Of a DNA stretch of 64,000 bases, positions 13,087 to 51,075 are shown one piece after another (the first letter of the stretch is position 1; every line of letters begins with the position of its first letter). This stretch comes from Candidatus Woesearchaeota archaeon (GTDB taxonomy: Archaea > Nanobdellota > Nanobdellia > Woesearchaeales > GW2011-AR4). The position numbers and the translations under genes were made by a program. The stretch spans positions 10,999-74,998 of the forward strand of contig JACPMR010000002.1 in NCBI GenBank assembly GCA_016185945.1. Reading direction: 5' to 3'. A model generated the notes under the pieces. That model was not told the DNA's origin and did not search any database. It saw only the letters and a list, made by a program, of their open reading frames with translations.

Positions 13087-13255
13087 TTCAATCCGTCTGC
13101 GACGCATTTTACTGCGCGTCGGCATTCTGATGTTGAGGAAGCATTCTTTTGTGCTCCTCCTCCGCGCCTATTTATTAAATAATTTCAGGCAAACTTTCCT
13201 GAGCTGGGTTCCCATTCCACCCTTGCTTTTGTTGGGAAGCGACGTTGATTGAATT
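13087..13255 (+). repeat. dispersed GC-rich element copy A (subfamily 1)
   Basis: TTCAATCCG, hairpin, conserved blocks cggcattctgatgtt / gtgctcctcc / cctatttatt / ttcctgagctgggttccca / tgggaagcgacgtt. Confidence 0.6.
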
Positions 13256-13301
13256 ATTTTTTTATGTTATAATTTTGAAAGAGTTAGTATTTTGTTGATT
13301 T

Positions 13302-13610
13302 TTAATCCAATTCACTAACTATTCTTTTCAATGCGTCGTCAACTGCAACAAATAGATTTCTATCTATAGCTTCTGAAGCATAAACTTTCCCATTGTCGAC
13401 AATCTTGACATGCACTTCATATTTTTCGCTTTTCTCTCTTTGGTGTATGGGCTTTAAAGTTACATGCAAAGACTCCATTTTTTCACATAATTCAGAAATT
13501 CTTTTGGCATGGTTGCCTATAATTTTCTTCAAAACTATCATTGAAGAGCTATCAATATCTCTGAAGCCAGTCAACTGGATATTGCCGCCAAGTCTTAAAT
13601 CGTCTTCCAT
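13302..13610 (-). CDS. ribosome hibernation-promoting factor / RaiA (S30AE) family-like protein
   Basis: 102 aa. The C-terminal half YEVHVKIVDNGKVYASEAIDRNLFVAVDDALKRIVSEL parallels E. coli HPF ATLHVNGGEIHASAEGQDMYAAIDGLIDKLARQL. The N-terminal NIQLTG parallels LNITGNN. Confidence 0.45.
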   Translation of the reverse strand: MEDDLRLGGNIQLTGFRDIDSSSMIVLKKIIGNHAKRISELCEKMESLHVTLKPIHQREKSEKYEVHVKIVDNGKVYASEAIDRNLFVAVDDALKRIVSELD

Positions 13611-14081
13611 GAGGCGCTATCTAATTTCAGGATTATAAAAAGATTTTGGTTTTGAAAATAAAAAAAGTTATTCAGAAGCCGGGTTTGCTTCCTTACTTTA
13701 GCCATTATTCCTTTCTATATAGAAGAAAAATAGATTTAAATCCTATTGATGATTTACAAAGTGTATTGTTCTAATTACGCAAGGTCAAAGGCTGCCTTCA
13801 GGGCAATCCAGCCAATATTTCGTACATTTTACCTATGGGAGCATAAGATGTTATAAAGGGAATAATAAAGTTAGAGTTATTCCAACTGCAGAATTAATTC
13901 AATTAGCTTCAAATCCAGATACATTAAAGCAATCGCTTGAAGAAAGATTATTGTTAAAAGGAGAGGAATTGGGGATAGTGGCTGATACTATAAGAGAAAT
14001 GTATGTGGATGGCTCATTGATTGCATATTTATAACTATTCTTGTATAAATATTTATATTATAGACATCATTACTTAGTAAT

Positions 14082-14378
14082 ATGAACATTGCCGATTTAG
14101 TTAAAGAACTTTTCCCAAGTCATGACTTAGACAGGTTAGAGAGCGCTAAAAATCCACGACAATTGTTCTTGAACTACATGGCTAATCTCCCAAAACATGC
14201 GATTAGGGGCGGAGCGCTTGGTGCCGTAATTGGCCCAGTTGTTATTCCATTGATATATGACTTCTTTGGTGTGGACTTATCAGGTGATCCTACTTTTGAC
14301 AGAGCAGGAGGCGCTTTTTGGGTTGCATTAATTGATATGGCACAATATGTTGCACGTGCATATAGATTTGCTAAATAA
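14082..14378 (+). CDS. hypothetical small protein with a Gly/Ala-rich hydrophobic segment
   Basis: 98-aa ORF. Confidence 0.35.
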   Translation: MNIADLVKELFPSHDLDRLESAKNPRQLFLNYMANLPKHAIRGGALGAVIGPVVIPLIYDFFGVDLSGDPTFDRAGGAFWVALIDMAQYVARAYRFAK

Positions 14379-14423
14379 AATATTGATTATCATTCACAAA
14401 GATAAAAATATAAATAGGAATAA

Positions 14424-15827
14424 GTGACAACTTGCATCATGGCTTTGGTTGAATCGTTTTCTGGAATTAGGGGCATATACGACAAGGACTTGACAGAAAG
14501 CATTTCTGTAAAATATGCACATTCTTATTTGACGTTTTTAAGGAAGAAAACGGAAAAGAATAATCCTACAATTGTTATTGGCATGGATACAAGGCCTTCT
14601 GGCGTTAAATTAAGCGATGCAATAATGGGAATTCTTGACTGCAACTTTATTGATGTGGGGATTGCCCCTACTCCTGCTGTCGAATTTGCTGTGAGGCACT
14701 TCGATGCGGACGGAGGGATTATAATAACAGCATCACATAATGAGCCATACTGGAACGGCTTCAAGTTTTTAAGCAGTGATGGCGGTATTTTAAATGAAAA
14801 AGAGATGAACTTGGTTATTAATGGTTCTAGACATTTACAAAATTTCCACAAGATACAAGAAAGAAGAATAGTGGAAAAAAACAAGGAAACTATTGAAAAA
14901 TATAAGGAATTTATTTATAGCATCATCGGCAAAGAAAATATAGCAAGAATAAAAGAATCAAGGCAAAAAATTGTGCTTGACCCAAATGGCGGAGCCGGAA
15001 TAATCGCAAAGAAATTTCTTGAAGACATTGGTGTTGAGGTTATTGGCGTCAACATGCAGTATGGCGAATTCAACAGGGCAGTTGAGCCGACAGAGGATTC
15101 ATTAATCTATTTGAAAAATATAATCGATGAAAACAAGGCAGATTTTGCTGCAGGGTTTGACTGCGATGCTGACAGGGTTGAGATTTTATTGAAAAACGGA
15201 CAACTTTTGTCAGGAAATTATATTCTCGCATTAATTGCTGATGACACACTTTCAGGTGCAAATAATCCTGAAAGACAAATTGTTGTTGTAAATGATGCAA
15301 CCTCAAATGTAGTTAGAGATGTTGTTAAAAAATTCGGCGCAAGAATAAAGGAAGTTGAGGTAGGCGAAACAAATGTCGTGCAGGAGATATACAAATCAAA
15401 AGCAATTGTTGGAGGAGAGGGCTCGAGCGGAGGAGCAATTATGCCACCTTCTAGATGCAGGGACGGGATTTTGACTTTGCTGGCAGTTTTGTCAATAACC
15501 GCGAAGAAAGACAAAAAATTGATTGACATAGTGGAGGAATTGCCGAAATATTACACATTGAGAAAAAAGATAGAATTTGATTCCAAAAAACATGATAGCA
15601 TAAAAAAATATTTAAAAGATTACTACTCGAAAAAAGGTTTTGAGATAGGGGAAACTGGCGGAATAAAAGGCGGATTGAAAATTATTACAGCAAAAAACTC
15701 ATTTGTATGGTTCAGAGCTTCAAAGACAGAGGGGAATGTCTTCAGGATAATAAGCGACTCTGACAAAAAAGGAGAGGCGGAAGGATTGATTGAAGAGGCA
15801 GTTAAAGTTTTCGAGAAAATAAAATGA
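14424..15827 (+). CDS. phosphohexomutase (phosphoglucosamine/phosphoglucomutase/phosphomannomutase family)
   Basis: GIRGI N-terminal motif. Active-site TASHNEPYWNGFK (SHN phosphoserine loop). Confidence 0.85.
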   Translation: MTTCIMALVESFSGIRGIYDKDLTESISVKYAHSYLTFLRKKTEKNNPTIVIGMDTRPSGVKLSDAIMGILDCNFIDVGIAPTPAVEFAVRHFDADGGIIITASHNEPYWNGFKFLSSDGGILNEKEMNLVINGSRHLQNFHKIQERRIVEKNKETIEKYKEFIYSIIGKENIARIKESRQKIVLDPNGGAGIIAKKFLEDIGVEVIGVNMQYGEFNRAVEPTEDSLIYLKNIIDENKADFAAGFDCDADRVEILLKNGQLLSGNYILALIADDTLSGANNPERQIVVVNDATSNVVRDVVKKFGARIKEVEVGETNVVQEIYKSKAIVGGEGSSGGAIMPPSRCRDGILTLLAVLSITAKKDKKLIDIVEELPKYYTLRKKIEFDSKKHDSIKKYLKDYYSKKGFEIGETGGIKGGLKIITAKNSFVWFRASKTEGNVFRIISDSDKKGEAEGLIEEAVKVFEKIK

Positions 15828-16681
15828 ACGAGACAACAAATGAAGGATTTATTGAAACACAAAAAAATCAAAGATTTTTTGTGCCCCAAAATTCTGAAAG
15901 AATTTTTAGGGAAATAGAATCTCAATTATTATCTGTACTATTCAATTACGCAATCCCGTTTATAGACAATAAAATAAAACAACCGCAAATAAAGCCAAAA
16001 CAACAAGCAAATAATTTAGAAAATATTGTCAATAACGCAAAGCCAAAAATTGATTTTGCAGATATTAAAGAGCTGGAAAAATTATTATTGCAAAATTTGA
16101 GCCGAAATGTGAAAGTAAGTAAAAAGGCAAGTTTGGACTCGAAACATGTAGTCTATTCAATAAATTTAAGACGGCAAAAATCGAAAAATGAAAAGTTAAG
16201 CAATTATTCGATATCTATAAAATACGAGGAAAATGAAAGTGGAGAAAAGTTAAGAGTTTCCGTCAAGAAAGACGGAAGGGAAGTTTATTCAACAGAAATA
16301 ACAGAAAACAAAGAGCAAAAAGACAAAATTGCTCCTTATGGCGTAGTAATAGCCTATGAAGATCGTTACGCAGAAGAAAGATTAACAATTACTTATAAAC
16401 AACAACTAAAAAATTACATGAAAAAACATGTTGAAGAAAAAGAAGATATGACTAATAGGGTTCCATTGAAATGGCTCAACATATTGCCTGAAACAATGAT
16501 GGGCGGAGTTCTTGGATTTACTTATTTGGGGGAAAACTTCATGGGCAGAAGAGCGGATTTAATAGGCAAAACTGCAAGAATGGTAGACATTCATGAAAGC
16601 ATACATACCCCTGATGAGTATGAAACAAGAGTTCTGACAAGCTGGATAATGGATAGGGTTAGGGGTAAGTATGTTAAGTAA
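15824..16681 (+). CDS. hypothetical protein with HExxH motif (putative metal-dependent hydrolase)
   Basis: MVDIHESIHTPDEYE near the C-terminus. K/N/E-rich N-terminal half. Confidence 0.35.
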   Translation: MNETTNEGFIETQKNQRFFVPQNSERIFREIESQLLSVLFNYAIPFIDNKIKQPQIKPKQQANNLENIVNNAKPKIDFADIKELEKLLLQNLSRNVKVSKKASLDSKHVVYSINLRRQKSKNEKLSNYSISIKYEENESGEKLRVSVKKDGREVYSTEITENKEQKDKIAPYGVVIAYEDRYAEERLTITYKQQLKNYMKKHVEEKEDMTNRVPLKWLNILPETMMGGVLGFTYLGENFMGRRADLIGKTARMVDIHESIHTPDEYETRVLTSWIMDRVRGKYVK

Positions 16682-16694
16682 AAATTGGTTAAAA

Positions 16695-17063
16695 TTAAGA
16701 AGTGACACGCCCTTCAATTCCGAACCTTTGAAGCAGGACCTTCAATTCATCTGGAGGGATACGCTGGTAATTTTCTACAACATTTCTGAGTTGCTTCCCT
16801 AGTTTGCTTCCACTATACCCAAAAATTTCTAGTACTTCGCTTAAAAAATCATCGATAGAAAGTTCGCCTTTTAAAACTTCTAAAGGGATAGGAGCCACAT
16901 TTCCATTTACTATACGTTCAATATACCCCTTCCTTCTTTTGTCAGTTGGTATTATCTCCACTAATCTTACCTCGCCGACCTGCCCATCATAAAGTACCAT
17001 CCCAGAATAAATATCGAGATGCGGCTGGTATATTGCCGGCTCCCCAACTTTGATGCCTTCCAT
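16695..17063 (-). CDS. hypothetical protein (small beta domain plus C-terminal HhH-like motif)
   Basis: 122-aa ORF. C-terminal GSKLGKQLRNVV...LLQRFGIEG. Confidence 0.35.
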   Translation of the reverse strand: MEGIKVGEPAIYQPHLDIYSGMVLYDGQVGEVRLVEIIPTDKRRKGYIERIVNGNVAPIPLEVLKGELSIDDFLSEVLEIFGYSGSKLGKQLRNVVENYQRIPPDELKVLLQRFGIEGRVTS

Positions 17064-17181
17064 AAGAATAAAATAAGGGTTTTATACTTATAAATTTTGC
17101 GTCGACGACAATTAAAACTGATTTAAAACCAGCAAAAATCCTGTTTTCAGATAAAAACCTTTAAATCCACTAATTGATTTC

Positions 17182-18474
17182 TTGACTTTCATGGCAAATG
17201 TGCACTTAATTACACAGGGATGCAGCAGCAATCTGAGGGAATCGGAAATAATGACTGGGCTGTTGCAGAATTCCGGCTATGAGATAGTTAATGATGAAAA
17301 TGATGCAGAGGTTAATGTAGTTAATATCTGCACAGTTAAAGGCGACACAACTGCCTTGAGGGAAATTAGAAGGCTGAAAAAATCAAATCCCAATAAAAAG
17401 CTGATTGTTGCAGGCTGCATAACAGAAAGCATTGTGCCGAAGATAAAGCAAATTGATGAAAATATAAGTTTTGTTAATACACATAATTTCGGAAAAATAT
17501 CGGCTGTTGTAGAGAATTTTTTAAATGGAACAATCCTTGAACTTCTGGACAAGAAATATGAGCAAAAAGTTAATCTGCCATCTGTAAGAAAAAATCCAGT
17601 TGTGGGGATAGTTCCTATCCTGAATGGCTGCAATTATTTCTGCACATTCTGCTCGACAAAACTAGTCAAGGGAAAATTGTTTTCCTATCCGATGTATGCA
17701 ATAAGGCAGGATGTCAAAGAGCATTTGAAAGCAGGCTGCAGGGAAATATGGGTTACATCAAATGACACTGGCGCTTACATGGTTGAGCAGGGCGGAAAGC
17801 AGAGGCTGGTAGAACTGTTAGAGCAGATTTTATCAGTGCCAATTGATTTTAAACTAAGATTGGGAATGTTGAATCCCGGCAACACAATGCCAATACTTAA
17901 TGAATTGATTGAAGCTTACAAGCATCCAAAAATGTTCAAGTTTTTGCATATCCCTATACAGTCGGGAAACAACGAAATATTAAAATTGATGAACAGGCAG
18001 TATAAGGCTGAAGATTTTATTAAAGTAGTTGAGGCATTCCGAAAAGAAATTCCGGAGATAACAATTTCCACCGACATCATTGTGGGGTTTCCCTCTGAAA
18101 CAGAGCAGCAGTTTGAAGATTCATTGAATTTGCTCAAAAAAATTAAGCCCGATGTTTTGAATTTGTCAAGGTATGCTGCACGGGAAGGGACCATTGCTGC
18201 TAAAATGAAGCAACTGGCGACAAACACCCTGAAGGATAGGTCCAGAATGATGACAAAAATTTATAAAGAAATCGCGCTTTCGAACAACAAAAAATGGGTT
18301 GGGTGGCAGGGCAAAATTCTAATTGACGAGAAAGGTAAAAATGATTCGTGGGTCGGAAGGAATTATTGCTATAAGCCAGTTGTGATAAAAGGAGATTTTA
18401 AGTTGGGAGATGAAATTCAAGTGAAAATAACGGATGCTACAAGCTTTGATTTGAGGGGAGAAATGTGGAATTAG
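17182..18474 (+). CDS. radical-SAM methylthiotransferase (MiaB/RimO/CDKAL1-like tRNA MTTase)
   Basis: N-terminal MTTase Cys cluster. Radical-SAM GCNYFCTFCS. C-terminal TRAM-like region. Confidence 0.85.
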   Translation: MTFMANVHLITQGCSSNLRESEIMTGLLQNSGYEIVNDENDAEVNVVNICTVKGDTTALREIRRLKKSNPNKKLIVAGCITESIVPKIKQIDENISFVNTHNFGKISAVVENFLNGTILELLDKKYEQKVNLPSVRKNPVVGIVPILNGCNYFCTFCSTKLVKGKLFSYPMYAIRQDVKEHLKAGCREIWVTSNDTGAYMVEQGGKQRLVELLEQILSVPIDFKLRLGMLNPGNTMPILNELIEAYKHPKMFKFLHIPIQSGNNEILKLMNRQYKAEDFIKVVEAFRKEIPEITISTDIIVGFPSETEQQFEDSLNLLKKIKPDVLNLSRYAAREGTIAAKMKQLATNTLKDRSRMMTKIYKEIALSNNKKWVGWQGKILIDEKGKNDSWVGRNYCYKPVVIKGDFKLGDEIQVKITDATSFDLRGEMWN

Positions 18475-19899: not shown

Positions 19900-19926
19900 C
19901 TTTTAAATTTTTAATTTGATTTTTTA

Positions 19927-20140
19927 TTATTTTAAATTCCAATCCGTTGCTTCGCAACATTAGTTACTGCTCGGCTTTCGCTCCCCTGCCAGTGACATGC
20001 GAGGCTCGCGAAGAGACTCGCTCGCCAGTCACCCGCTCAAGCCTCGCCTATTTATTTAATAAATTCAGGCAAACATTCCTGAGCTGGGTTCCCATATCAC
20101 CTAGGTAGATGCTGGGAAGCGACGTTTTTGAAATATTTTT
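19927..20140 (+). repeat. element copy B (subfamily-1 3' part, with a ~50-nt internal GC hairpin module)
   Basis: ttccaatccg GTTGC-TTCG-GCAAC. Internal module ccagtgacatgcgaggctcgcgaagagactcgctcgccagtcac. Confidence 0.6.
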
Positions 20141-21245: not shown

Positions 21246-21251
21246 TTTTCA

Positions 21252-22268: not shown

Positions 22269-22323
22269 AACTATTTCACCTTTTGATTTTTAAGTGATTT
22301 TGATTTTTATTCGACGACTAATC

Positions 22324-22465
22324 TTTCAATCCGGCTTTGCCAAATTCTAGTGCTCGGCAAAACTTCCCTTTCAATCAGTTTTGCCTCGCCTATATATTCA
22401 ATAAAAAATAAAAAGCGGTTTACTTTCTTCACGCTTACATCCAAAAGTCGCTCTCGTTTTTTTGA
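22324..22465 (+). repeat. element copy C (subfamily 2)
   Basis: ttcaatccg, then ctcGGCAAAACT...AGTTTTGCCtcgcctatatattcaataaaa...aaagtcgctctcg. Confidence 0.6.
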
Positions 22466-32526: not shown

Positions 32527-32904
32527 TTATTTCCTTCCAAAATAAAAGAACTTGTCTATGCTCACATCATCCGGCTGATAATCTCCGTATCTTGGCTTTA
32601 TGGGCTCTGAGTTTTTTGCAGCTCCGCTTTGGAATTCTTCCTTTCTTTCATCTTCAGGTCTGCAGTCAACAATTCCCACCTCTTTTTTTGGTTTGATACT
32701 CGGCTCTTCTATGAGTTTTTTCTGGACAGAATGTTGGGGCTGGAATTGCAATCTAGAAATCTGGCTTTTCAATGAGCCAATCTCGCTGTTCAAGGAAACA
32801 ACATACTCCTTTAATGCTTGAATCTCCTGCTGCAGCTTCTTTGTCGCCATCTCAATCATTAACTCAAATCTTTTCTGAGTGAAAGCATCAAGCTGTTGTT
32901 CCAT
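32527..32904 (-). CDS. coiled-coil protein, hypothetical
   Basis: 125 aa. N-terminal heptads. Confidence 0.4.
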   Translation of the reverse strand: MEQQLDAFTQKRFELMIEMATKKLQQEIQALKEYVVSLNSEIGSLKSQISRLQFQPQHSVQKKLIEEPSIKPKKEVGIVDCRPEDERKEEFQSGAAKNSEPIKPRYGDYQPDDVSIDKFFYFGRK

Positions 32905-32943
32905 TTTTGTTAACCTTTTGATAACCTTATTTATTTAAATATA

Positions 32944-33146
32944 TTCAATCCGTTGCTTCGCAACAATATTTAGTGCTCACCCTCACTTTTCTGCCAGTGG
33001 CATGCGAGGCTCGCGAAGAGACTCGCTCGCCAGTCACCCGTTCGGGCTCGCCTATCATTCAATAACAAAATCAAAAGCTGGTCTCCTTCATCGCTTGGGG
33101 AATCTAAAGGAAGCTCTCGTGATTGTTTTGAATTAGTTTATTGTTA
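32944..33146 (+). repeat. element copy D (subfamily-2 3' end plus the internal module)
   Basis: ttcaatccg GTTGC-TTCG-GCAAC. Same internal module as B with gtggc in place of gtgac. Confidence 0.6.
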
Positions 33147-37872: not shown

Positions 37873-38043
37873 ATATTTCAAACAACTTCGCTTCCCAGCA
37901 TCTGCAAAGGTTAGTGGGAGCCCAGCTCAGGAATTTTTGCCTATCCATTTCAAATATATAGGCGCCGAGGGGGAGCACAAAATAATGCAACTTTAACATC
38001 TAAATGCCGAGGCGCACTAGAATTCGCCGAAGGCGAATTGAAA
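37873..38043 (-). repeat. element copy E (subfamily 1, reverse orientation)
   Basis: Reverse complement reads ttcaattcg CGCC-TTCG-GCG ... cctatatatttg ... ttcctgagctgggctccca ... tgggaagcgaagtt. Confidence 0.6.
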
Positions 38044-38473
38044 TTTTAAGATTATAAAAGATTAAAAACAAAATCAATAAGTTGATAGAGCAGATTGAAT
38101 CAAAGATTTAAAATCATAAGAAAATCTTAAAATAAATTTATAAAAAAGCCACCCCCAACACCAAGCTGGGGGCAACCACACACAAAGAGGTTTTGAGTCA
38201 AAAGAGGGTTACTGACTCTTTGCCTATGCTTATAAATTATTCATCACCTTTAACTTATCACCTCCGATTTTTTAATCGCCTTCCAAACCAATGAAAATAA
38301 AAAGCACCTCATAAAGAGGTGCCACACACTTGGAGATGTTTTGATGATATCTAGGCAATAGCTTAAACGAGGGTTTATAAATACCCTGTGAAAGGCTGTT
38401 AGAGAGAAAACCTACAGAACTATCTTTCATAAGCTTTTTAAATGGATGTTTTTAAGCTGCCTGTGTGGGTTAA

Positions 38474-39420: not shown

Positions 39421-40420
39421 TTAAGTTATTTTATAAGTTCCCGGCTTCATAAACACCTTTTCCGTTTTGACAGCAAGTCCTTTTTCTCCAAGCATTTCCT
39501 TTGAGTTCATTTGTGATGTACCAAGTGCTATTAGCTCATTTTTTAGAGTCATTATAGCCACTACGCTATTCTGATTTATTCCACTTTCTACTTTACTTAT
39601 TCCAGGCACTTTCAAGTCAACGCCGTGGCATAAACTTTCAACAGTTGTGTCGAAAACCCAGATTTTTGGAAGGTGATTTACGCCATTTTCAACCAGCTGG
39701 ATTACTTTTCTGATGAATCTCTCATTGTTTTCTTCCTTCCAGAAATGATATGCGTCCTGAAGTTCGTGCAGCGTGAATAAAGTTGATTCGTCAAAAGGGC
39801 CTGCTTTTGTTCTTCTCAATTCAGCCATATGCGCGCCTGTGCCAAGTTTTTTTCCGATGTCGTGAATCAATTTTCTTATGTAAGTGCCTGCCTCTGTGCC
39901 GACTTTGAACAAAACATCCTTTCCGTCAATTTCAAGAATGTCAAGATAATAAACTGTTCTTGTCCTTAACTGCCTTTTGACAGAGCTTTTAATAGGGGGC
40001 AACTGCTCAATTTTTCCGATGAAATGCTTTTGAATTGTTTCCCTTAATTTTTCCTCTTCGACTTCCTTGTGCAAGTGCATTATTGCAACATACTCCTTGC
40101 CTGCTGTCAAAAGCGCTTGCACAATCCTTGTTGCTCTGCCTAAAGCAATTGGAAGAACTCCGGTTACTGCGGGATTTCTCTGATTTTTACTCTAGAGTCC
40201 CAGAGTGACCAGATTTAGTTATTCCGAGTATTTTTTGCACGTAGTCAGCGACCTGATGGCTTGTTGGACCTTTCGGTTTATCTATGTTTATGATTCCATA
40301 ATTTATTATCCCTTCTGTTTTCCTGTCCTCAGGTTTACAACCATATCCTTCGCCTGTCTCTGCTTCTTTCCGAACAAGGACTTTTCTTTCTATTCTTTCA
40401 AATGGTAACAGATTTTTCAT
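39421..40420 (-). CDS. cbf5: tRNA/rRNA pseudouridine synthase Cbf5 (TruB family), interrupted: exon 1 40191-40420, exon 2 39421-40174 (327 aa if 16 nt removed)
   Basis: Track ORFs 40187-40420 (...KSGHSGTLE*) and 39421-40122 are contiguous Cbf5. Removing 40175-40190 restores [23 protein letters not shown] with the catalytic Asp. Confidence 0.8.
40175..40190 (-). other. 16-nt intervening sequence in cbf5 (candidate bulge-helix-bulge-type archaeal intron; alternatively an indel)
   Basis: Pre-mRNA GGGACUCUAGA|GUAAAAAUCAGAGAAA|UCCCGCAG. GGGA pairs with UCCC and CUCU with AGAG, leaving an AAA bulge at the 3' junction. Confidence 0.45.
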
Positions 40421-41204: not shown

Positions 41205-41352
41205 TTTTCAATCCGTCCCTTCGGGACAATGTTTACTGCTCGGCAAAACTTTCCCTTTCAATCAGTTTTGCCTCGCCTATAAATCCAATAAAACGTCAAA
41301 AGCTGGTCTCCTTTATTATGATTACTTTCAAAGGACGCTCTCGTGATTGTTT
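41205..41352 (+). repeat. element copy F (subfamily 2)
   Basis: ttcaatccg GTCCC-TTCG-GGAC, then the same core as C. Confidence 0.6.
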
Positions 41353-41391
41353 GAATTTTTTAATTTTGTAAATTATCGTATATTTTTTGCT

Positions 41392-42315: not shown

Positions 42316-42457
42316 ATTTCAATCCGCTCACTTCGTTCGCAAACTTTACTGCTCGGCGAAATTTGCCTGCCACTAAATTTCGCCTCGCCCATATATGCAC
42401 TAAAATCATCAAAAGCGGTTTACTTTAATCACTTGCTACATATAAAAGTCGCTCTTG
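42316..42457 (+). repeat. element copy G (subfamily 2, compensatory variant)
   Basis: ttcaatccg. Core hairpin GGCGAAATTT/AAATTTCGCC in place of GGCAAAACT/AGTTTTGCC. Confidence 0.55.
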
Positions 42458-42710
42458 GGATTGAATTATTTTGTTTTTATTGATTTAATTATTATTGAAT
42501 TTTAAAATTGTTTTTCTTTACACCTTGCGGTGTTAGAATGGCTAATTTGTATTAGCACAAAAGAATGGTATTTTGCTGTATTTATAAATATTATGTCCAA
42601 ATTAAAAAATCAAAGATTTTATAAATTTCTCCACATTATCATTAATGAGCAATTAAACTAACTACATTTATTTTCCATATAGAAATAAAACAACTGTATT
42701 TGATGTAAAA

Positions 42711-45314
42711 ATGATAGAATACTTAGAAAAACCCTACAAACCAGAGCAAATCAGGCACATTCTGAATCCTATTGTAGATAAATGGTTCTTCACAAGGTTC
42801 AAGGAATTCTCTTTGCCACAATTATTTGGGGTTATGGAAATACACTCAAGGAACAATATTCTCGTGAGCGCTCCGACCGGCGCGACAAAAACTTTGACTG
42901 CTTTCTTGTCAATTTTAAACGAACTGATTGACTCAAGCGAAAAAGGAATTTTGGAGGATAGGGTTTATTGCGTTTATGTGTCACCATTAAAGGCATTGAG
43001 CAATGACATTCATGTCAATCTTGTCGAGCCGCTGAAAGAGATGGAAAAGATTGCCGGAAAAAAATTAAACATAAGGGCTGCAGTAAGGACAGGCGACACA
43101 TCAGCTTCTGAGAAAGCAAAGATGCTGAAGCATCCTCCACATATTTTGATTACAACTCCTGAAAGTTTGGCAATCATGCTTTCATCAATAAAATTCAGGG
43201 AATTATTGAAAAATGTTGAATGGCTTATTGTAGACGAGATTCATGCACTGGCAGAAAACAAAAGAGGGGTGCACTTGTCATTGTCTGTGGAAAGATTAAA
43301 TAAAATTTCACCTTCAATGGCAAGAATCGGCTTGAGCGCAACTATTGCCCCGCTTGACGAAATAGCAAAATTCCTTGCCGGATATGAAAACGGAAAGCTG
43401 AGAAACTGCAAGATTGTGGATGTGCAGTTCATAAAAAACATGGACCTGAAAGTCCTATCGCCAGTCCCTGACTTGGTTGACATGGAGCATGCAATGATGC
43501 ACGATGCAATGTATAATTTAATCGACGATTTAATCCAAAGCCACAGGACAACTTTAATTTTCACAAACACACGTTCAGCAACTGAAAGAGTTGTCCATCA
43601 CTTGAAAGAAAAATTCCCGAAAAAATACACTGAAAATATAGGGGCGCATCACGGCTCATTGTCAAAGACATTAAGGCACAACATAGAGAATAGATTGAGA
43701 AAAGGCGAATTGAAGGTTATTGTGTCAAGCACGTCTTTGGAGTTGGGCATCGACATCGGCTACATAGACTTGGTTATATGCCTTGGCTCGCCTAAATCAG
43801 TCTCTAGATTCTTGCAGAGAGCAGGGCGTTCAGGGCATCGCCTTCATGACACGGTGAAAGCAAGGATAATTGTCCTGGACAGGGATGATTTGGTGGAATG
43901 TGCTGTTCTTCTCAAATCAGCAATCGAGAAAAAAATTGACAAAATTCATATTCCAAAAAACTGCCTTGATGTCCTTGCGCAGCAAATTCATGGGATGTCG
44001 CTTGAGCAGAAATGGAGGATAAGGGAAGTTTTTGAATTGATAAAGCAAAGCTACTGCTTTCATGAGATTGAATGGAAGGATTTCATGGAGATTTTGGATT
44101 ACCTCTCAGGAAAATACATCTCCTTGGAGGACAGGCACATTTATGCAAAAATATGGCATGATGATGAGACAGGCGAGCTTGGAAGAAAGGGCAAGATGAG
44201 CAGGGTAATTTACATGACAAACATTGGCACTATCCCTGAAGAATCTTTCATAACTGTAAAAGTCGGCGAGCAGATTATTGGGCATATTGACGAGGCGTTC
44301 CTTGAAAGGCTGAAGAAAAATGATGTTTTTGTTTTAGGCGGGGAAAGGTACGAATTTCTGCACGCAAAGGGGATGGTTGCTTATGTAAACGCATCTGTCT
44401 ACAGGCCGCCTACAATCCCCTCGTGGTTTTCCGAAATGCTGCCATTAAGCTTTGACTTGGCTTTGGACATCGGAAGGTTCAGAAAACTGATGAATGAGAT
44501 GTTTTGCGCTAATAAATCAAAAAGCGAAATTTTGGATTTTATTAACATGTACCTATACGTTGACAAAAATGCTGCTGAATCAGTTTATGATTATTTTTAC
44601 GAGCAGTTTAATTATGCGGAAATTCCTTCTCATTCAAGGATTATTGTTGAGCATTATACTGATGCAAAAAGCAAGAGAAAATATGCAATTTTTCACACGC
44701 TTTACGGAAGAAGAGTAAATGACTGCCTGTCAAGGGGAGTTGCATTTGCAATTGCAAGAACGCAGCACAGGGACGTAGAGATTGGAATAAATGACAATGG
44801 ATTTTATATCGCGTCAGAGAAAAGCGTAAATGTTATGCAGGCATTCAATTTAGTGAAGTCAAAGGAAATGAGAAAAGTTTTGGATATGGCAATCGAGCAC
44901 ACAGAAGTCCTGAAAAGGAGATTCAGGCACTGCGCTACTCGGGCAATGATGATACTGCGCAGCTACATGGGGCACCAGAAAAGGGTTGGAAGACAGCAGG
45001 TAAGCTCAATGATATTGATGAACGCTGTAAAGAGAATTGATCCAAATTTCTGCATTTTAAAAGAAGCAAGAAGGGAAGTTTTGGAGGATTTGATGGACAT
45101 AGAAAATGCGCAGAAAATAATCGAGGGCATCGAGCAGAAAAAGATTTTAATAAAGGAGATAAACACTAATCTGCCATCGCCGTTTGCCTTCAACTTAATA
45201 TTGCAAGGTTTTACTGATTTAATGAAGATAGAGGACAAGGTTGAATTTGTCAGGAGAATGCACGAGCAGATAATGGCGAAGATAAGTGTGGAGAAAATTT
45301 CATCCGAAAAATAA
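42711..45314 (+). CDS. lhr: Lhr-type ATP-dependent DEAD/DEAH-box helicase
   Basis: Walker A APTGATKT, DEIH box, Lhr-core length of 867 aa. Confidence 0.85.
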   Translation: MIEYLEKPYKPEQIRHILNPIVDKWFFTRFKEFSLPQLFGVMEIHSRNNILVSAPTGATKTLTAFLSILNELIDSSEKGILEDRVYCVYVSPLKALSNDIHVNLVEPLKEMEKIAGKKLNIRAAVRTGDTSASEKAKMLKHPPHILITTPESLAIMLSSIKFRELLKNVEWLIVDEIHALAENKRGVHLSLSVERLNKISPSMARIGLSATIAPLDEIAKFLAGYENGKLRNCKIVDVQFIKNMDLKVLSPVPDLVDMEHAMMHDAMYNLIDDLIQSHRTTLIFTNTRSATERVVHHLKEKFPKKYTENIGAHHGSLSKTLRHNIENRLRKGELKVIVSSTSLELGIDIGYIDLVICLGSPKSVSRFLQRAGRSGHRLHDTVKARIIVLDRDDLVECAVLLKSAIEKKIDKIHIPKNCLDVLAQQIHGMSLEQKWRIREVFELIKQSYCFHEIEWKDFMEILDYLSGKYISLEDRHIYAKIWHDDETGELGRKGKMSRVIYMTNIGTIPEESFITVKVGEQIIGHIDEAFLERLKKNDVFVLGGERYEFLHAKGMVAYVNASVYRPPTIPSWFSEMLPLSFDLALDIGRFRKLMNEMFCANKSKSEILDFINMYLYVDKNAAESVYDYFYEQFNYAEIPSHSRIIVEHYTDAKSKRKYAIFHTLYGRRVNDCLSRGVAFAIARTQHRDVEIGINDNGFYIASEKSVNVMQAFNLVKSKEMRKVLDMAIEHTEVLKRRFRHCATRAMMILRSYMGHQKRVGRQQVSSMILMNAVKRIDPNFCILKEARREVLEDLMDIENAQKIIEGIEQKKILIKEINTNLPSPFAFNLILQGFTDLMKIEDKVEFVRRMHEQIMAKISVEKISSEK

Positions 45315-45454
45315 AATTTAAATTCCAATCAATTCTATCGAAGCAAATCCATATATCTTATCAACGAAGTATCCGGAAGTTTCTTCCAATGAGTATGATG
45401 GGATGTCTCTGGAATAAGTATTAATATTTTGTCAGAATTTTTAGATAATAGATT

Positions 45455-46123: not shown

Positions 46124-46284
46124 ATGTCCACTTAGGAATCACTTGTTTATTAACTTTTTGATATATTCAGAAATATTTTCCTTGAAAATAATAAAAAAGA
46201 ACCCAAATTTATTGAACGACATTTCTCAAGTTCAATGTGAAAATAACATATTGGATACCCTAAACGAAGTATTTAAATATTGAG

Positions 46285-46908
46285 TTGTCTTCTTTGTCTC
46301 AAATAAAAATGACAACAATAATCGGCATAACCGGCTCAATCAGCTCAGGTAAGACAGTAGCAGCAAAAATATTCAGCAGGCACTGGTACAATAGAATTGA
46401 TGCAGATGAAATCGGGCATCAGATACTACAGAAAAATTCTGATGCTTATAGAAGAGTAATCAAAGAGTTTGGAAACGAAATTCTCGATAAAAACAGAAAT
46501 ATTGACAGAAAAAAATTGGGAGATGTTGTTTTTAATGATGATAAAAAACTGAAAAAATTGAACTCAATAACGCATCCGATGATACTCAATGAAATAAGAA
46601 AACAAATAAAAAAAATTCAAAAAAAATGTGGCAATAAGACAAAAATAATAATTGATGCTCCTTTATTGCTTGAAACAAAGGCAAAAGATTTGATTGATAA
46701 GATTATTGTCGTCAAGACGGATAAAAAAAATATTTATGAAAGGGCTGGAAAAAAATATCCAAGAGAAAAAATAGAAAAGATTTTAAAGAGCCAGATGCCT
46801 CTTGAGGAGAAGCTGAAACGTGCGGATTTTGTGATCGATAATAATAAAGATTTAAGGCATTTGGAAAAACAAATTTTGGGGATAATACAAAATATCGAGA
46901 AAAAATGA
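46285..46908 (+). CDS. coaE: dephospho-CoA kinase (bacterial type)
   Basis: IGITGSISSGKT P-loop and DADEIGH. Confidence 0.8.
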   Translation: MSSLSQIKMTTIIGITGSISSGKTVAAKIFSRHWYNRIDADEIGHQILQKNSDAYRRVIKEFGNEILDKNRNIDRKKLGDVVFNDDKKLKKLNSITHPMILNEIRKQIKKIQKKCGNKTKIIIDAPLLLETKAKDLIDKIIVVKTDKKNIYERAGKKYPREKIEKILKSQMPLEEKLKRADFVIDNNKDLRHLEKQILGIIQNIEKK

Positions 46909-47387
46909 AAACAGCAGTTTACCCGGGAACTTTTGACCCTGTTACAAACGGGCACATTGACATAATTGAAAGGGCTTTGAAGTTATTCGACAAACTGTAC
47001 ATTCTTGTCGGCGAAAATCCCCAAAAAGCCACTACTTTCTCCGCAGAAGAAAGGGTTGAAATGCTGAAACAGGCATTGAAAAAGCACAACAACAAAATAG
47101 AAGTTGAGCATTTTGACGGCTTGCTTCTGAATTATGTGAGGAAAAAGAAATCAAATGTGATTGTCAGGGGATTAAGGGCTATCTCTGATTTCGAGTTTGA
47201 ATTCCAGCGAGCACAATTTAACAGGGAGTTTGCAAAGGACATTGAAACTATCTTTATTATGACAAAAGACGACTATGCATTCTTGAGCTCCAGCATCATC
47301 AAGGAGATAGCAATGTTCGGCGGCTCGGTTAAAGGGTTTGTGCCAGCAATTGTCGAGAAAAAGTTGAAGGAGAAGTTTGTGAAATAA
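46905..47387 (+). CDS. coaD: phosphopantetheine adenylyltransferase (bacterial type)
   Basis: AVYPGTFDPVTNGH. Overlaps the coaE stop. Confidence 0.88.
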   Translation: MKTAVYPGTFDPVTNGHIDIIERALKLFDKLYILVGENPQKATTFSAEERVEMLKQALKKHNNKIEVEHFDGLLLNYVRKKKSNVIVRGLRAISDFEFEFQRAQFNREFAKDIETIFIMTKDDYAFLSSSIIKEIAMFGGSVKGFVPAIVEKKLKEKFVK

Positions 47388-47393
47388 AATTCA

Positions 47394-47645
47394 CTAATAA
47401 AACTTGCTCAAGTCCTCTTCCTGCATCCTTCTTCTGGGCTGGGTTTCGCTTATTGCTTTCTGCTTCATCAACCTTGCCGTGTAACCTGCTATCATGTTCC
47501 TGAGCTTTGCAGAAGCAACTGTAGTATATTTATCAACAATTTCCTTGTTCTTATCGAATTCAGAAGTAAATTCTTGCTCATGCTCTTTGATTAGCTTTCT
47601 TGCAACGCTCTTAACCAAAGTAGTTTTTATCCTGCCCATGTTCAC
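47394..47645 (-). CDS. rps17e: ribosomal protein S17e
   Basis: [18 protein letters not shown]-terminus. Confidence 0.8.
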
Positions 47646-47890
47646 TCAAGCTTTGTCTGGTCAAATGCCTTTGTAGCTGCCTCTTTCTTAAGTGTGCCTG
47701 GGATGGGCCTTTTAACTGTTATTGGTATCAAGCCCTGCTTGAATTCCAGCTTTGCTATCTCTATTGTGTTGTAGCCGAGCTTCTTAAGCTCATCATCACT
47801 TAGTTTGACCAAAATCGGGGCTCCCATAGAAATCTGCAATGCTCTTGTCCCTATAATCCTTGCCTGCTCGTATTTTGTGTAATCTTCCAT
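47642..47890 (-). CDS. rpoK: DNA-directed RNA polymerase subunit K (Rpb6 homologue)
   Basis: [19 protein letters not shown]. Confidence 0.85.
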
Positions 47891-47999
47891 TTTTCACTTA
47901 ATTGTAACTCCGCTTACTAATCTTCGCCGTCTTCGTCGCCCCAACCGTCTCCTTCATCATCAAAATAGATTCTCATATTTCTCACCCCAAAAAATGACA

Positions 48000-48110
48000 T
48001 TAAAGCACTTCATCATTATCAATAAAGCTCTCTCCGCATGAAGGGCACTCTTCCTCGCCTTCTTCAAGGATTGTACCACAATTAGGACATTCCCTTTGCT
48101 CTTCCTCCAT
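48000..48110 (-). CDS. 36-aa acidic zinc-ribbon peptide (not in ORF track)
   Basis: MEEEQRECPNCGTILEEGEEECPSCGESFIDNDEVL. Co-oriented downstream of rpoK. Confidence 0.35.
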   Translation of the reverse strand: MEEEQRECPNCGTILEEGEEECPSCGESFIDNDEVL

Positions 48111-48573
48111 TTTTCACCTCAGAACCTTATTGTGGCTTTATAAGGCATGGCTCGGCAGAATATTAAAAGGTGGTATTTAAATGTATCGTAAAAAATTAGA
48201 GAGAATATGTATCTAAAGTCTTTTGTTAAAAGATGTTCTCAAACCCTTTCTTATACTTTCCTTTTTAGTATGGTTTATACCTTTTAAAATACCAAAAAAT
48301 CTTAATATGTTATGTTTCTTTTTCATTGTTGTAGTTACAGCTTTCTTTGCAAGGAAATTGACATATATCACAAGTTGTTATAAGGTGTCTTCATATTTAA
48401 ATATTTTTAGTTGCAGAGTTATTTAAGTTGTAAATCGGAATTTGATTGCGTTATTGCTGCATCGTTTATAGCAAATGGTGTTGATAAAATACTGACTAAA
48501 AATCCAAAACATTTTGAAAATATTAAGCAGTTAAAAGTATTGAGTTATTGATTTATATGGCATCTGCCCTATA

Positions 48574-48873
48574 CTATCCGCCCTTCTTCCTCAAAGAATT
48601 CAACCTTGTCCTCAGCTTCTTGACAGCAGATTCCTTGTCCCTCGAGCTCAGCAAGTCATTTGCAAGCTTCTGGTCGCCTATGACATCTGAAATCCATTTG
48701 CTGAAATCGTTCTTCTCGCTGTTCACATGATGAATGTAAGTTTCATCGCTCATCTGCGGCAATGTGTCTGCCAATTCTTCAATGTTTTTCAGTATAGGGC
48801 CGTTATTCACCCAGAAGCATTGCTCAGGCTGGGTGTTGCCAAGGTATTTTCTTGCTTCATCTTTTGTAACCAT
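48574..48873 (-). CDS. hypothetical protein, paralogue A of a tandem pair
   Basis: Shares FxVxxGxxLKNIxELADxLxxMSxExxxHHxNxxxNDFSxWxxDV with the neighbouring ORF. Confidence 0.5.
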   Translation of the reverse strand: MVTKDEARKYLGNTQPEQCFWVNNGPILKNIEELADTLPQMSDETYIHHVNSEKNDFSKWISDVIGDQKLANDLLSSRDKESAVKKLRTRLNSLRKKGG

Positions 48874-48875
48874 TT

Positions 48876-49226
48876 TTACATCAGCTCTTTTACTAATCTT
48901 CTTAATACTGCAATCTGTGTTTCAAGGCGGTTTTTTGCTCTTGATATGTCTTCTGCAAGGCTATGATCGTAAAAAACATCTTTGACCCATGTACTGAAGT
49001 CATTCTTGAATTCATTGGCATGATGCCTGAAGATTTCCTCGCTCATGGTTTCAAGCGCATCTGCAAGCTCTATGATGTTTTTCAGCTTTCTGCCGTCTGC
49101 AACAACAAAATGATGCTCTTCGGGAGCTTCTCCGAGAACTTTTTTTCTTATTATTACTTCGACTGATTGCAATGGCTTTTTAGAATCAGACTTATTTTTA
49201 GCTGTTCTGCCTCTTTTTTTAACCAT
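48876..49226 (-). CDS. hypothetical protein, paralogue B (basic N-terminal tail)
   Basis: Same motif block as 48574-48873. Confidence 0.5.
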   Translation of the reverse strand: MVKKRGRTAKNKSDSKKPLQSVEVIIRKKVLGEAPEEHHFVVADGRKLKNIIELADALETMSEEIFRHHANEFKNDFSTWVKDVFYDHSLAEDISRAKNRLETQIAVLRRLVKELM

Positions 49227-49289
49227 TCTATCACCAATTAGAATGTTATTTGCCTTGTTATTTTTATAATTTGCGGTTTTTGGCTAGAA

Positions 49290-49658
49290 TTATTCAAGTT
49301 GGCAACCGCTTAACTGGCTTAATTGTTCCAAAGTTAATTCGCCTTCTATTCTTTGCCCTATAAATTCCCACGTTGGATAAGCCCTTATGCCGGCATCATT
49401 GCAAAACTGAGTTTGCCCTGCCTGGTTTGGCAGAGAACATTCAATATAGTTTATGTATTGCCTGCTTTCTCCAAACATTTCTTTTTGGCTATTGCAATGT
49501 GGGCACCAATATGCGCCATACATCTTGGCTCCAGAGTTTGTCAGGCATTTGGCAAAATCATCATATTTTGAAGATTTAACAACATTGCCTGTTGTATTAG
49601 TGCAACTGGCAATCAGAAGCCCAGTGACAAATAAGAAAATCATTGTTTTTAGGTTCAT
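49290..49658 (-). CDS. thioredoxin-fold lipoprotein (CxxC thiol-disulfide oxidoreductase-like)
   Basis: Signal peptide LLIASCT. WCPHC motif. Confidence 0.6.
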   Translation of the reverse strand: MNLKTMIFLFVTGLLIASCTNTTGNVVKSSKYDDFAKCLTNSGAKMYGAYWCPHCNSQKEMFGESRQYINYIECSLPNQAGQTQFCNDAGIRAYPTWEFIGQRIEGELTLEQLSQLSGCQLE

Positions 49659-49719
49659 AGAGCTGCTAATATTTTTGGTTATTTAAATGTGAGGTATATA
49701 GAGTATGAGAAAAAGATAA

Positions 49720-50925
49720 CTATCTTTCAACCTTCACTTCGCTCAACTTGTTCGCCTTAATCCTGAAATCATTAAGAATGTTCATGTAAGCAATGAAAGC
49801 TTCGTATGGGCTGTCGTATGGATTAAAATATTTATGCACATCGCCATCATTAAACCACTTAGTGCACATGTAATAGAAGTGGTCGCTTGTCTGCAAGTTT
49901 CTCCATTCATCGATTAAAGCAGGATTGTTTGACAGCTTCACATGCGGCTCCAGAGCATAGATTTCTTTTGTTGCTTCATGCTGCATTTTGTTGCCGAGCC
50001 ATGCGCTCAAGTCCCTTTCAATGTCTGCCCAGCTTACATAATGCGGGAAATCAATTTCAGCAATTGGCTCGTATCTCTTAATGGCTTCGCTTGGTGTTAC
50101 AAAATCATTATCGGGATGCTTTAGTATCTCAGAAGGCAAATGCTTCAGGAAATCAAAAATTCCCTTGTCTTCCCATTGGTGCTCGCCAAAGGTTTCATAG
50201 TCCATGAACAGATTTACAACATTGCCATTGCCGTTAATCTGGCTTATCCATTTGGCATATTTTGGAGCTGTCAACGGAAACTCTTTCCAGCTTTTCTCTG
50301 AAAACCTGAATGCAACATCATCTGACAACCTGTAGTTTTTGAGAAGCAATTTTATGCTGCTCAGCCCTTTTGGCTTGTAGACAAAATTCGGGCTTCTCCA
50401 CTGCAAAATATGGTCAGCTCCTTCTGCAAGAATGCCCTTGTAGCCCATTTTCTCAATGAAGGAGGCTATCTCGTTGCTGAAGACAAGCTCGGTGTTCCTG
50501 AAAACCTTTGGCTTGTAATTGAATAATTGTCTTATTTTTTGGTTATGTAATTGAATTTGTTCTTTAAATTCCTCCTTTGAGTAAAGAAAAGCCAATGTAT
50601 GATTATAAGTTTCATCCAGAATCTCTACACAGCCAGTATCAACAAGCTCTTTGAAGCTGTCTATAACCTCAGGAGCGTATTTTTCCAGCTGCTCAAGCAC
50701 AATGCCTGTCATGCTGTAGGCAACCTTGAATTTTCCATCGGTTTTATTGATTAAGTCAAGAATTATATTGTTGGCTGGCAGATAGCACTTGCGGGTTACT
50801 TTCCTTATGATTGCCTCGTTCTTGTGCTCGTCAAAGTAGCTATTGTGCTGCCCGATTTCAAACACAGAGTACTTTCTAAGCCTTGGCGGCTGGTGAACTT
50901 GAAAGTAAAAACATACGCTTACCAT
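49720..50925 (-). CDS. glycoside hydrolase family 57 protein (alpha-glucan active)
   Basis: CFYFQVHQPPR N-terminus and FMDYETFGEHQ. Confidence 0.75.
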   Translation of the reverse strand: MVSVCFYFQVHQPPRLRKYSVFEIGQHNSYFDEHKNEAIIRKVTRKCYLPANNIILDLINKTDGKFKVAYSMTGIVLEQLEKYAPEVIDSFKELVDTGCVEILDETYNHTLAFLYSKEEFKEQIQLHNQKIRQLFNYKPKVFRNTELVFSNEIASFIEKMGYKGILAEGADHILQWRSPNFVYKPKGLSSIKLLLKNYRLSDDVAFRFSEKSWKEFPLTAPKYAKWISQINGNGNVVNLFMDYETFGEHQWEDKGIFDFLKHLPSEILKHPDNDFVTPSEAIKRYEPIAEIDFPHYVSWADIERDLSAWLGNKMQHEATKEIYALEPHVKLSNNPALIDEWRNLQTSDHFYYMCTKWFNDGDVHKYFNPYDSPYEAFIAYMNILNDFRIKANKLSEVKVER

Positions 50926-50976
50926 TTTTGTTTTTGAGTTTTTGATTTGTTTTTAATCTTGCTTATTAAAAATTTC

Positions 50977-51075
50977 TTCAATCCGTCGTGCTTCGCACGA
51001 CAATATCTTGGCGCCTCGGCATTCTGATGTGAAGGCAACATTTATTTGTGCTCCTCCTCGGCGCCTATACATTTA
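50977..51075 (+). repeat. element copy H (subfamily 1, 3'-truncated)
   Basis: ttcaatccg GTCGTGC-TTCG-GCACGAC, then cggcattctgatgtg...gtgctcctcctcggcgcctatacattt. Confidence 0.55.

Follow-up and report, generated by a model that had tools for sequence, protein, structure and literature searches.

A modular family of hairpin-built intergenic cassettes in Woesearchaeota whose constant module often lies just upstream of genes

Short, non-coding repeats that fold into hairpins have been described from the intergenic DNA of several bacteria and archaea, among them the bacterial interspersed mosaic elements (BIMEs) of enterobacteria, built from repetitive extragenic palindromes (REPs), the Correia elements of Neisseria (also called Neisseria miniature insertion sequences, NEMIS), the BOX elements of Streptococcus pneumoniae and, in archaea, the MITEs (miniature inverted-repeat transposable elements) of the SM family in Sulfolobus and the palindrome-associated transposable elements (PATEs) derived from insertion sequences (ISs) of the IS200/IS605 group. 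Many Correia elements lie upstream of genes or in operons, are co-transcribed and form RNA hairpins, and outward promoters have been reported in them; BOX elements are transcribed as well, with predicted stable RNA structures able to affect neighbouring genes. Here we describe a family of intergenic cassettes from a 64-kb stretch of DNA (64,000 nucleotides; the window, below) of a Candidatus Woesearchaeota archaeon (GenBank assembly GCA_016185945.1, contig JACPMR010000002.1, positions 10,999 to 74,998), one of the DPANN archaea, which the part of the literature drawn on here describes as genome-reduced. The family is genuine, lineage-wide in Woesearchaeota and, as far as can be told, undescribed; its copies join a constant module, L, to an exchangeable partner. 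The reading that we favour, and to which we give about an even chance, is that of a mobile or recombining cassette of the BIME, BOX or Correia kind in which L would be a structured 5′ leader of the downstream mRNA.

An earlier reading of the window (the original prediction) had picked out eight intergenic loci with common near-identical blocks; long blocks are present at all eight, and an independent repeat search recovered them. The sequence TTCAATCCG, with which elements start on the strand then described, has seven occurrences in the window, where 0.68 would be expected (0 of 100 shuffles get to seven): six at the start of an element and one (15671-15679, minus strand) within an open reading frame (ORF), with no element. 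A covariance model (CM) of the L module, trained on copies from other genomes and three window copies, gives nine matches in the window (E = 7e-19 to 6e-3; next-best match E ~1): the eight already noted and a ninth at 8636-8790, missed before, which lies in the opposite orientation upstream of a plus-strand gene starting at 8820. The repeat family and its copies, at the coordinates listed below, are confirmed as real, with a density of about one cassette of 100-200 nt per 7 kb. Their G+C content had been put at 45-55% in DNA of ~33%; measured values are 37.3% for the window, 37-48% for whole elements and 43-56% for L cores. Rfam 15 at gathering thresholds gave no match in the entire window and, at E <= 5 over 8-52 kb, three weak, unrelated matches, none at an element; an origin from tRNA or split tRNA genes was rejected, ARAGORN and the Rfam tRNA model matching no element. 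Exact-protein look-ups of the ribosomal proteins S19e and L39e, whose genes adjoin two of the copies, returned none on record. With no Rfam match and no literature description of such elements in DPANN archaea found, the claim of novelty stands; our confidence in the description of the family is high, and its function we infer.

Alignment of the nine window copies (E1 to E9) shows a modular build, in which L adjoins the gene and the partner module is exchangeable. L consists of two covarying hairpins and the terminal sequence CGGATTGAA; in the window its large, central hairpin takes at least three forms, a (E3, E6, E7), b (E1, E5, E8) and c (E2, E4, with an additional inserted hairpin), and that of E9 is short and matches none of them. 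The partner, R, is of type X in E1, E2 and E5 and of type Y in E3, E4, E6, E7 and E9, and E8 is L only. The modules, with their CM scores for L, are as follows.

8650..8712, plus strand: E9 partner module R, type Y; hairpin CACGAGAGCGACUUUUG...AAAAGUGAACCGCUUG, an inverted match to E7 and E3
8729..8790, plus strand: E9 L module with short central hairpin; 41.4 bits, E = 4.5e-8
13085..13175, minus strand: E1 L module, type b; 30.4 bits; 84% identical to E8 over 67 nt
13176..13255, minus strand: E1 partner module R, type X; 47 nt past the stop of an S30AE-family gene (13302-13610)
19927..20055, minus strand: E2 L module, type c; 58.5 bits; insert 96% identical to the E4 insert
20056..20140, minus strand: E2 partner module R, type X; from sequence and repeat search
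22323..22397, minus strand: E3 L module, type a; 73.7 bits
22398..22465, minus strand: E3 partner module R, type Y; sense-strand U5 and U6 tracts come after it
32942..33059, minus strand: E4 L module, type c; 57.8 bits; upstream of a 125-aa ORF (32527-32904)
33060..33146, minus strand: E4 partner module R, type Y; from sequence and repeat search
37873..37953, plus strand: E5 partner module R, type X; from sequence and inverted repeat matches
37954..38044, plus strand: E5 L module, type b; 30.4 bits; no ORF within 110 nt downstream
41205..41284, minus strand: E6 L module, type a; 83.6 bits; 37 nt upstream of the L39e ATG
41285..41354, minus strand: E6 partner module R, type Y; from sequence and repeat search
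42316..42396, minus strand: E7 L module, type a; 79.3 bits; 50 nt upstream of the S19e ATG
42397..42466, minus strand: E7 partner module R, type Y; on the strand first described its outer end is GGGAUUGAA, complementary to the L end
50975..51072, minus strand: E8 L module, type b, partnerless; 24.7 bits; 84% identical to E1

On the strand first described, L reads TTCAATCCG, small hairpin, TASTGCKC, large hairpin, YCGCCTAT; on the sense strand of the adjacent gene it reads AUAGGC-GA-(covarying stem with apical loop)-GA-GCACUAAAU-(small GNA-triloop hairpin)-CGGAUUGAA, followed on its 3′ side by an A-rich spacer of ~30-40 nt and an AAAAUG start. The earlier picture of two subfamilies plus mosaics gives way to one of modules, a single L with at least three hairpin variants and X or Y partners. 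The terminal inverted repeats that had been proposed are short and imperfect: the TTCAATC(CG)...(G)GATTGAA ends match over 7-8 bp in E1 and E7 and over ~5 bp in other copies such as E4 and E6, a perfect 9 bp is reached only where L is paired with its own inverse (L-L′ pairs), and L-only copies have none. A long helix that would close the element by pairing the outer end of R with CGGAUUGAA was considered and dropped, the L end being invariant and the R end often non-complementary. Across the family the partner slot holds R of type X, Y or Z, an inverted L (L′), other hairpins (W, M) or nothing, and the combinations differ even at the same orthologous site. Module M has the form GTCGAAAAT..ATTTTCGAGCATGCTCG..ATTTYCGAC and module W the form GAAACTTTTTGCGAAAAAGTTTC..GTACCATCTTCGATGGCAC; loci from related genomes (numbered with the prefix L) that carry M or W modules are L091 (~4790-5000), L003, L024, L025, L027, L030 and L105, and L057 (~7600-7690), L116, L079 and L041.

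That the element is structured, as predicted, is borne out by covariation in 55 L modules aligned without any structural input. Paired cells make up 82% in this alignment, against 61.5% after shuffling and at most 36% when the partners are slid, and the covariation score of 0.424 is reached in 0 of 500 shuffles (0.123 shuffled; at most 0.129 for slid versions). Both sides change at 15 of the 18 pairs (205 double-change cells), one-sided changes being almost absent, and in RNAalifold 7 of 9 pairs show compensatory changes. The stem cells comprise 740 Watson-Crick pairs, 9 G·U and 7 A·C, with no G·U excess on either strand that could serve as an RNA signature; stems of Watson-Crick pairs only would fit DNA hairpins, a need to fold in either orientation, or template switching that corrects one arm to the other. 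On the gene-sense strand, the stem cells that depart from Watson-Crick pairing read as G·A (109 cells). At the large hairpin's base, tandem G·A pairs in a CGAG/CGAG context do not vary, and they recur inside it and in the small hairpin, which keeps GA/GA in both arm orders (GUGAGC-GAA-GCGAAC and GCGAAC-GAA-GUGAGC). The loop of the small hairpin is a GNA triloop, often as GCGAAGC, that of the large hairpin A(A/G)UGGCAG(A/G)A, and the minimum free energy is lower on the gene-sense strand in 7 of the 9 full-length window copies. Because the G·A pairs, the triloops and the lower folding energy all fall there, we take the elements to be read on the strand complementary to the one first described, that is, on the sense strand of the adjacent gene. 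Three further structural ideas failed: a kink-turn of the L7Ae-binding kind (GA/GA is symmetric, 5′-C-GA-G / 5′-C-GA-G, with no bulge on either strand in the consensus), pairing of the apical loop (UARUGG) with the junction (GCASUA), whose variable positions do not covary, and G·U pairs of the R stem (GAGAGC/GCUUUU) as a strand marker, which break down in CGUUGCG subtypes.

The choice of strand bears on whether the cassettes are independent small RNA genes, with the internal box CGCCTATWYAT driving an R RNA of ~50 nt to the T-runs on the strand first described and L forming a second RNA. Such an arrangement would explain the constant 26-29 nt that separate the box from the R stem base, a distance like that from TATA box to transcription start site (TSS), the run of at least five T after R on that strand in 7 of 8 window copies, and the absence of an adjacent downstream gene at E1 and E5. 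The box, which had been likened to an archaeal transcription factor B recognition element (BRE) plus TATA box, is in sequence unlike the canonical promoter in these genomes, AAC[CA]TTTTTAAAT, found before 5S rRNA and tRNA genes and 28 S19e leaders. In tRNA and 5S genes it takes the form GAAAAC(C)-TTTTAAAT, and the mature RNA begins 28-33 nt past the first T of the TATA box (for example L019 236-280 and L020 3938-3985, upstream of a 5S rRNA and a tRNA). The internal box lacks the AAC[CA] and TTTTTAAAT parts and admits G or C at its centre in many copies (CTATACAT, CCATCTAT), and in E8 it abuts a stop codon, pointing antisense into the upstream gene, with no R module to transcribe. On that strand the conserved mismatches would be U·C and C·U, the T-richness matches the general gene-sense A-richness of intergenic DNA here, and partner modules swap with unrelated hairpins. 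Nothing was found in support of separate small RNAs starting 25 nt after the box, as had been suggested, and we consider such genes very improbable.

The family extends well beyond the window. A degenerate pattern scan over one genome per GTDB species returned 74 loci, 54 of them from 23 Woesearchaeota/Nanoarchaeota assemblies (the label Methanosarcinales on several third-party annotation (TPA) metagenome-assembled genomes (MAGs) among these is taken to be wrong). The other 20, all bacterial, are chance matches, about as many as expected: the model gives them at most 20.5 bits, whereas the archaeal pattern matches score 57-93 bits. Viral contigs scanned for the pattern gave none. The model counts 91 copies in 434 kb (the window and the archaeal loci) and 29 more in 43 loci encoding S19e relatives. 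Loop and junction sequences of L are conserved over the 23 species-level assemblies, and in the variable part copies of one genome have a mean similarity of 0.605, as compared with 0.632 between genomes. Because within-genome copies are no more alike, and near-identical recent copies were not seen, the family appears to have had no recent bursts and to draw on an old, shared pool of reshuffled variants.

The position of L relative to genes was classified for 116 copies, using ORFs of at least 100 aa. In 51 of them a same-strand start follows within 120 nt past CGGATTGAA, in most cases 28-40 nt after the point where the model ends. A further 23 point at a convergent gene's stop codon, mostly 19-42 nt off, and are largely the inverted halves of L′-L pairs between tandem genes; and 42, small genes and contig ends included, have neither. 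In the commonest order (30 copies), a co-directional upstream stop is followed by the partner module, L, the A-rich spacer and an ATG. Starts without a Shine-Dalgarno (SD) sequence, which only ~10% of ORFs possess, cluster at 28-40 nt from the end of L, and SD-led starts lie at 47-64 nt; AAA stands at -3 to -1 in ~95% of L-associated starts versus ~55% of other ORFs. The hairpins keep ~20 nt or more from stops and ~30 nt or more from starts, a spacing that fits ribosome clearance, and promoter geometry equally well. In the window six copies (E2, E3, E4, E6, E7 and E8), rather than the seven of eight originally counted, lie upstream of a minus-strand start, at 30-60 nt; E1 faces the stop of a plus-strand ORF, and E5 has no ORF within the 110 nt noted above. 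The genes served are those for alanine dehydrogenase (E2; a Pfam assignment, the gene having a TTG start with an SD), class I aldolase (with GAPDH next to it on the downstream side), the 125-aa ORF, L39e, S19e, a GH57 enzyme and an ACT-domain protein. E3 sits between the genes for a glpX-type fructose-1,6-bisphosphatase and the aldolase (both by Pfam), E6 within the S19e-PF01984-L39e-L31e operon, and E7 on the 3′ side of a conserved S19e leader; the upstream end of E8 abuts the stop codon of gene 51080-52042, the GH57 start being 53 nt downstream, and the E9 terminus, CAGUUUGAA, is followed ~30 nt on by the ATG of a 211-aa gene (8820).

Orthologous sites in related genomes show how the cassettes turn over. 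All S19e loci share the canonical promoter and a conserved two-hairpin leader (42516-42590, minus strand, in the window; L075-L115; 28 loci) of the pattern GYGCUAA..UUAGCC AUUCU CACC-GCAA-GGUG, which covaries in the most distant loci (L114, L115), finds no match in Rfam and is a candidate ribosomal-protein leader. Where the site is empty, the leader is followed by 25-80 nt of A-rich, SD-less sequence and the ATG; where it is filled, the cassette sits between leader and ATG, as R-L in the window and in L076, L084, L088, L100, L108, L075 and L079, as L′-L in L096, as L alone in L085 and L086, as R alone in L087, as other hairpin modules in L091 and L105, and in L078 as a remnant with the small hairpin and CGGATTGAA alone. 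L is sense-oriented here in all but L106, or ~14 to 1. L108, the closest relative, whose S19e is 90% identical in amino acids, carries other variants of both R and L at this site, and in the orthologous pair L054/L070 the stems are entirely different. At the second site, the PF01984-L39e junction of a conserved ribosomal-protein operon, the two genes are 1-14 nt apart in L082, L087, L088, L091, L099, L107 and L109 and separated by a cassette of 150-250 nt in the window (E6) and about ten other loci, with differing partner modules and a sense-oriented L beside the ATG. At both sites, cassettes are gained, lost and exchanged as units together with A-rich flanks, and of the MITE-like mobility proposed at the outset the presence, absence and replacement of copies has held up, the expected target-site duplication and autonomous partner having not been found.

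The favoured reading, that L is the leader of a mobile or recombining cassette, draws on these positions. L would be transcribed together with the downstream gene, as a structured 5′ end or 5′ untranslated region or as the boundary between two cistrons; its hairpins would guard the message against exonucleases and leave the A-rich region for ribosome loading unstructured, while the partner, a hairpin with a same-strand U-rich tract behind it, would close off the upstream transcript or insulate it. Spread might be by transposition or, more likely, by recombination or conversion among copies. We infer co-transcription because L lies downstream of the S19e promoter and leader, because the junctions are tight, and because E7 and E9, at the two divergent intergenic regions of the window, have canonical TATA boxes upstream of the whole cassette. 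Only 20 nt join leader and L in L085, and ~15 nt join W and L, lengths that leave no room for a separate promoter. The S19e mRNA is, moreover, both leadered and SD-less, and an A-rich spacer by itself is therefore no proof of a leaderless message. A scan of 32-52 kb for intrinsic terminators (a GC-rich stem, a loop of 3-8 nt and a direct T-run) showed no enrichment, with 16 against 16.4 expected, and flagged, weakly, only the small L hairpins; the R and large L hairpins have loops of more than 8 nt.

Several observations weigh against this reading. L is not always a leader, because 23 of the 116 copies face stops and neither E1 nor E5 has a gene downstream. The near-pure Watson-Crick stems would also suit DNA hairpins, or stems that have to fold on both strands. 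The R-to-L linker is U-rich on the sense strand (U5 and U6 in E3; a run of at least five T in about a third of copies) and could terminate read-through from upstream, and the fixed distance from CGGATTGAA(A) to SD-less ATGs fits a BRE/TATA element with a leaderless mRNA, which would leave L outside the message. As for mobility, no exact empty site was obtained, the closest filled/empty pair being ~82% identical in coding sequence and unreadable at the borders; no consistent direct repeat flanks window copies or pairs (ATTGAA recurs at module borders as part of the consensus); and the loci showed no transposase and no longer element with matching ends, whole genomes not having been searched.

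The spacing just mentioned is the starting point of a different account, unlikely in our judgement, in which L lies upstream of the transcript, ATTGAA(A) is the BRE and the next A/T-rich bases the TATA box of a leaderless or short-leader mRNA, and the partner with its U-tract ends the upstream gene; the whole would be a portable terminator-promoter unit, near to the outward promoter of the original prediction. The tight 28-40 nt of SD-less ATGs, set beside the 47-64 nt of SD-led ones, resembles the 28-33 nt from TATA box to 5′ end in tRNA and 5S genes; a weak TATA-like signal (T, then A) at -30 to -24 from ATGs, together with the scarcity of SDs, suggests that leaderless mRNAs are common here; U-rich tracts do follow the R hairpin on the sense strand; and a cassette that splits a tight operon junction must restore downstream expression. 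Against these stand the spacers themselves, which are 60-70% A, hold no canonical TTTTTAAAT box and show no clean T peak at -30 to -26 in L-associated genes. Re-initiation at the border of L, with a TSS between C and GAGG and TATA at -28 to -21, was tried and set aside: A+T there is 65-88%, but the starts of TATA-like runs scatter from -33 to -22, and the leader-L and W-L junctions are too short to hold a promoter. A promoter at the gene-proximal end of L leaves unexplained why covarying stems and strand-specific G·A pairs should be needed upstream of it, would make the S19e leader kept upstream of the cassette pointless, and sits poorly with the 23 copies that aim at gene ends.

Turnover at orthologous sites is also what would be expected of selfish DNA with no host role, whether a MITE bounded by TTCAATC...GATTGAA or REP/PATE-like single-stranded DNA hairpins moved by an HUH/Y1 enzyme, the biases in orientation and spacing then reflecting nothing beyond tolerated insertions. 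The short terminal inverted repeats and the perfect 9-bp inverted ends of L-L′ pairs agree with this, as do Watson-Crick stems devoid of wobble bias, the density of about one copy per 7 kb, and remnants such as L078; GCGAAGC-type mini-hairpins and tandem G·A pairs are, besides, very stable in DNA too. The ~14 to 1 preference for sense orientation at S19e and the conservation of loops and junctions over 23 species-level assemblies are harder to accommodate, as is persistence inside essential ribosomal-protein operons of genomes described, in the sources drawn on, as reduced. No target-site duplication, transposase or autonomous element was seen, and the similarity values given above show no sign of a recent burst. 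We hold a purely selfish origin to be rather improbable.

Returning to L as a leader, a stronger version, which we put forward as speculative and improbable, would make it a portable, lineage-wide expression leader read by a Woesearchaeota-specific factor or by the ribosome itself. The platform recognised would be the tandem G·A helices, the conserved UGGCAG loop and CGGAUUGAA, and SD-less genes would be expressed wherever the cassette lands, even after it has split a translationally coupled operon. If this were so, the family would be a mobile cis-element that rewires the architecture of transcription units in ultra-small genomes.

The window and the related loci hold other features. A gene-free gap of 934 nt downstream of E5 contains two strong hairpin-plus-T-run sites on the minus strand (38147-38177 and 38303-38323) and a GC-rich stretch with UGAUGA (38330-38400), and these may be further small RNA genes. 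At 12650-12790 on the plus strand, a GC-rich segment of ~130 nt closed by AAGAGGCA...TGCCTCTT ends in T6. The only ORFs that it overlaps are short and doubtful; it has no match in Rfam and may be a non-coding RNA. A weak match to the C/D-box sRNA sR4 (45194-45249, plus strand; 25.6 bits, E = 0.08, below the gathering score) falls at the 3′ end of an 867-aa ORF. No tRNA gene was found in the 64-kb window; 144 kb of related loci (L001-L073) have two tRNAs of 84 and 149 nt, presumably intron-containing, and one 5S rRNA. Cbf5 (39421-40420, minus strand) appears as two ORFs, DKCLD at 40187-40420 and TruB/PUA at 39421-40122, and the 106-nt gap between them reads as Cbf5-like coding sequence, which could reflect a frameshift, a sequencing error or a split gene. 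A 668-aa ORF contains 153-nt tandem repeats (54828-55767), and a duplicated 300-nt block (52051-52350 and 56737-57036, 83% identical) is common to two neighbouring large ORFs.

Despite the genome reduction described for DPANN archaea, then, the window carries about one cassette of 100-200 nt per 7 kb, essential ribosomal-protein operons included. If these are functional leaders or insulators, they show a mode of gene expression in genomes where only ~10% of ORFs have an SD; if selfish, they are a so far unnoticed mobile load in streamlined genomes. Either way, the family is a marker for transcription-unit boundaries in Woesearchaeota MAGs, explains GC-rich "islands" of intergenic DNA, and provides structural work with more than 100 natural sequence variants of a hairpin scaffold built on tandem G·A pairs.

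By analogy, the family resembles bacterial mosaic intergenic repeats and archaeal MITEs and PATEs in kind, with no sequence in common. Like the BIMEs and REPs of enterobacteria, it consists of dispersed extragenic hairpins with sequence-variable but complementary stems, assembled as mosaics of a few module types, inverted pairs among them, at transcription-unit boundaries and with differing content at orthologous sites; it differs in its archaeal hosts, in having no sequence relation (the GTAG-type REP head is absent from the L consensus, and no RAYT gene, the Y1 transposase associated with REPs, was seen, no search having been aimed at one) and in lying mostly 5′ of genes in fixed orientation, whereas REPs are mostly found 3′ of genes or between convergent ones. 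Correia elements share the size of ~100-200 bp, the inverted ends and the location near gene starts and within operons, but they have terminal inverted repeats of 26 bp, a TA duplication and one long hairpin cut by RNase III, in place of the 5-9 bp inverted ends, no duplication found, and separately folding modules with tandem G·A pairs seen here. BOX elements offer a parallel in their intergenic, modular boxA-boxB(n)-boxC build with exchangeable modules, in a different domain of life, with unrelated sequence and without fixed spacing to start codons. The SM elements of Sulfolobus and the IS200/IS605-derived PATEs are likewise short and non-coding, with inverted or subterminal palindromes, and are present or absent between relatives; they have an identifiable parent IS and near-identical copies, whereas in the present family no parent was found and the copies are old, diverged and conserved across many species, and the term MITE is used of it as an analogy, not as a demonstrated membership. 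The stabilising 5′ hairpins of the ompA type, a stable 5′ stem-loop followed by an unstructured ribosome-loading region, correspond to the role suggested for L, but they are features of single genes, whereas the cassette is exchangeable and occurs in roughly a quarter of transcription units. What sets the family apart from the mosaic repeats, MITEs and PATEs is that it keeps a fixed 5′-side orientation and spacing, is built with tandem G·A pairs and is conserved in many species.

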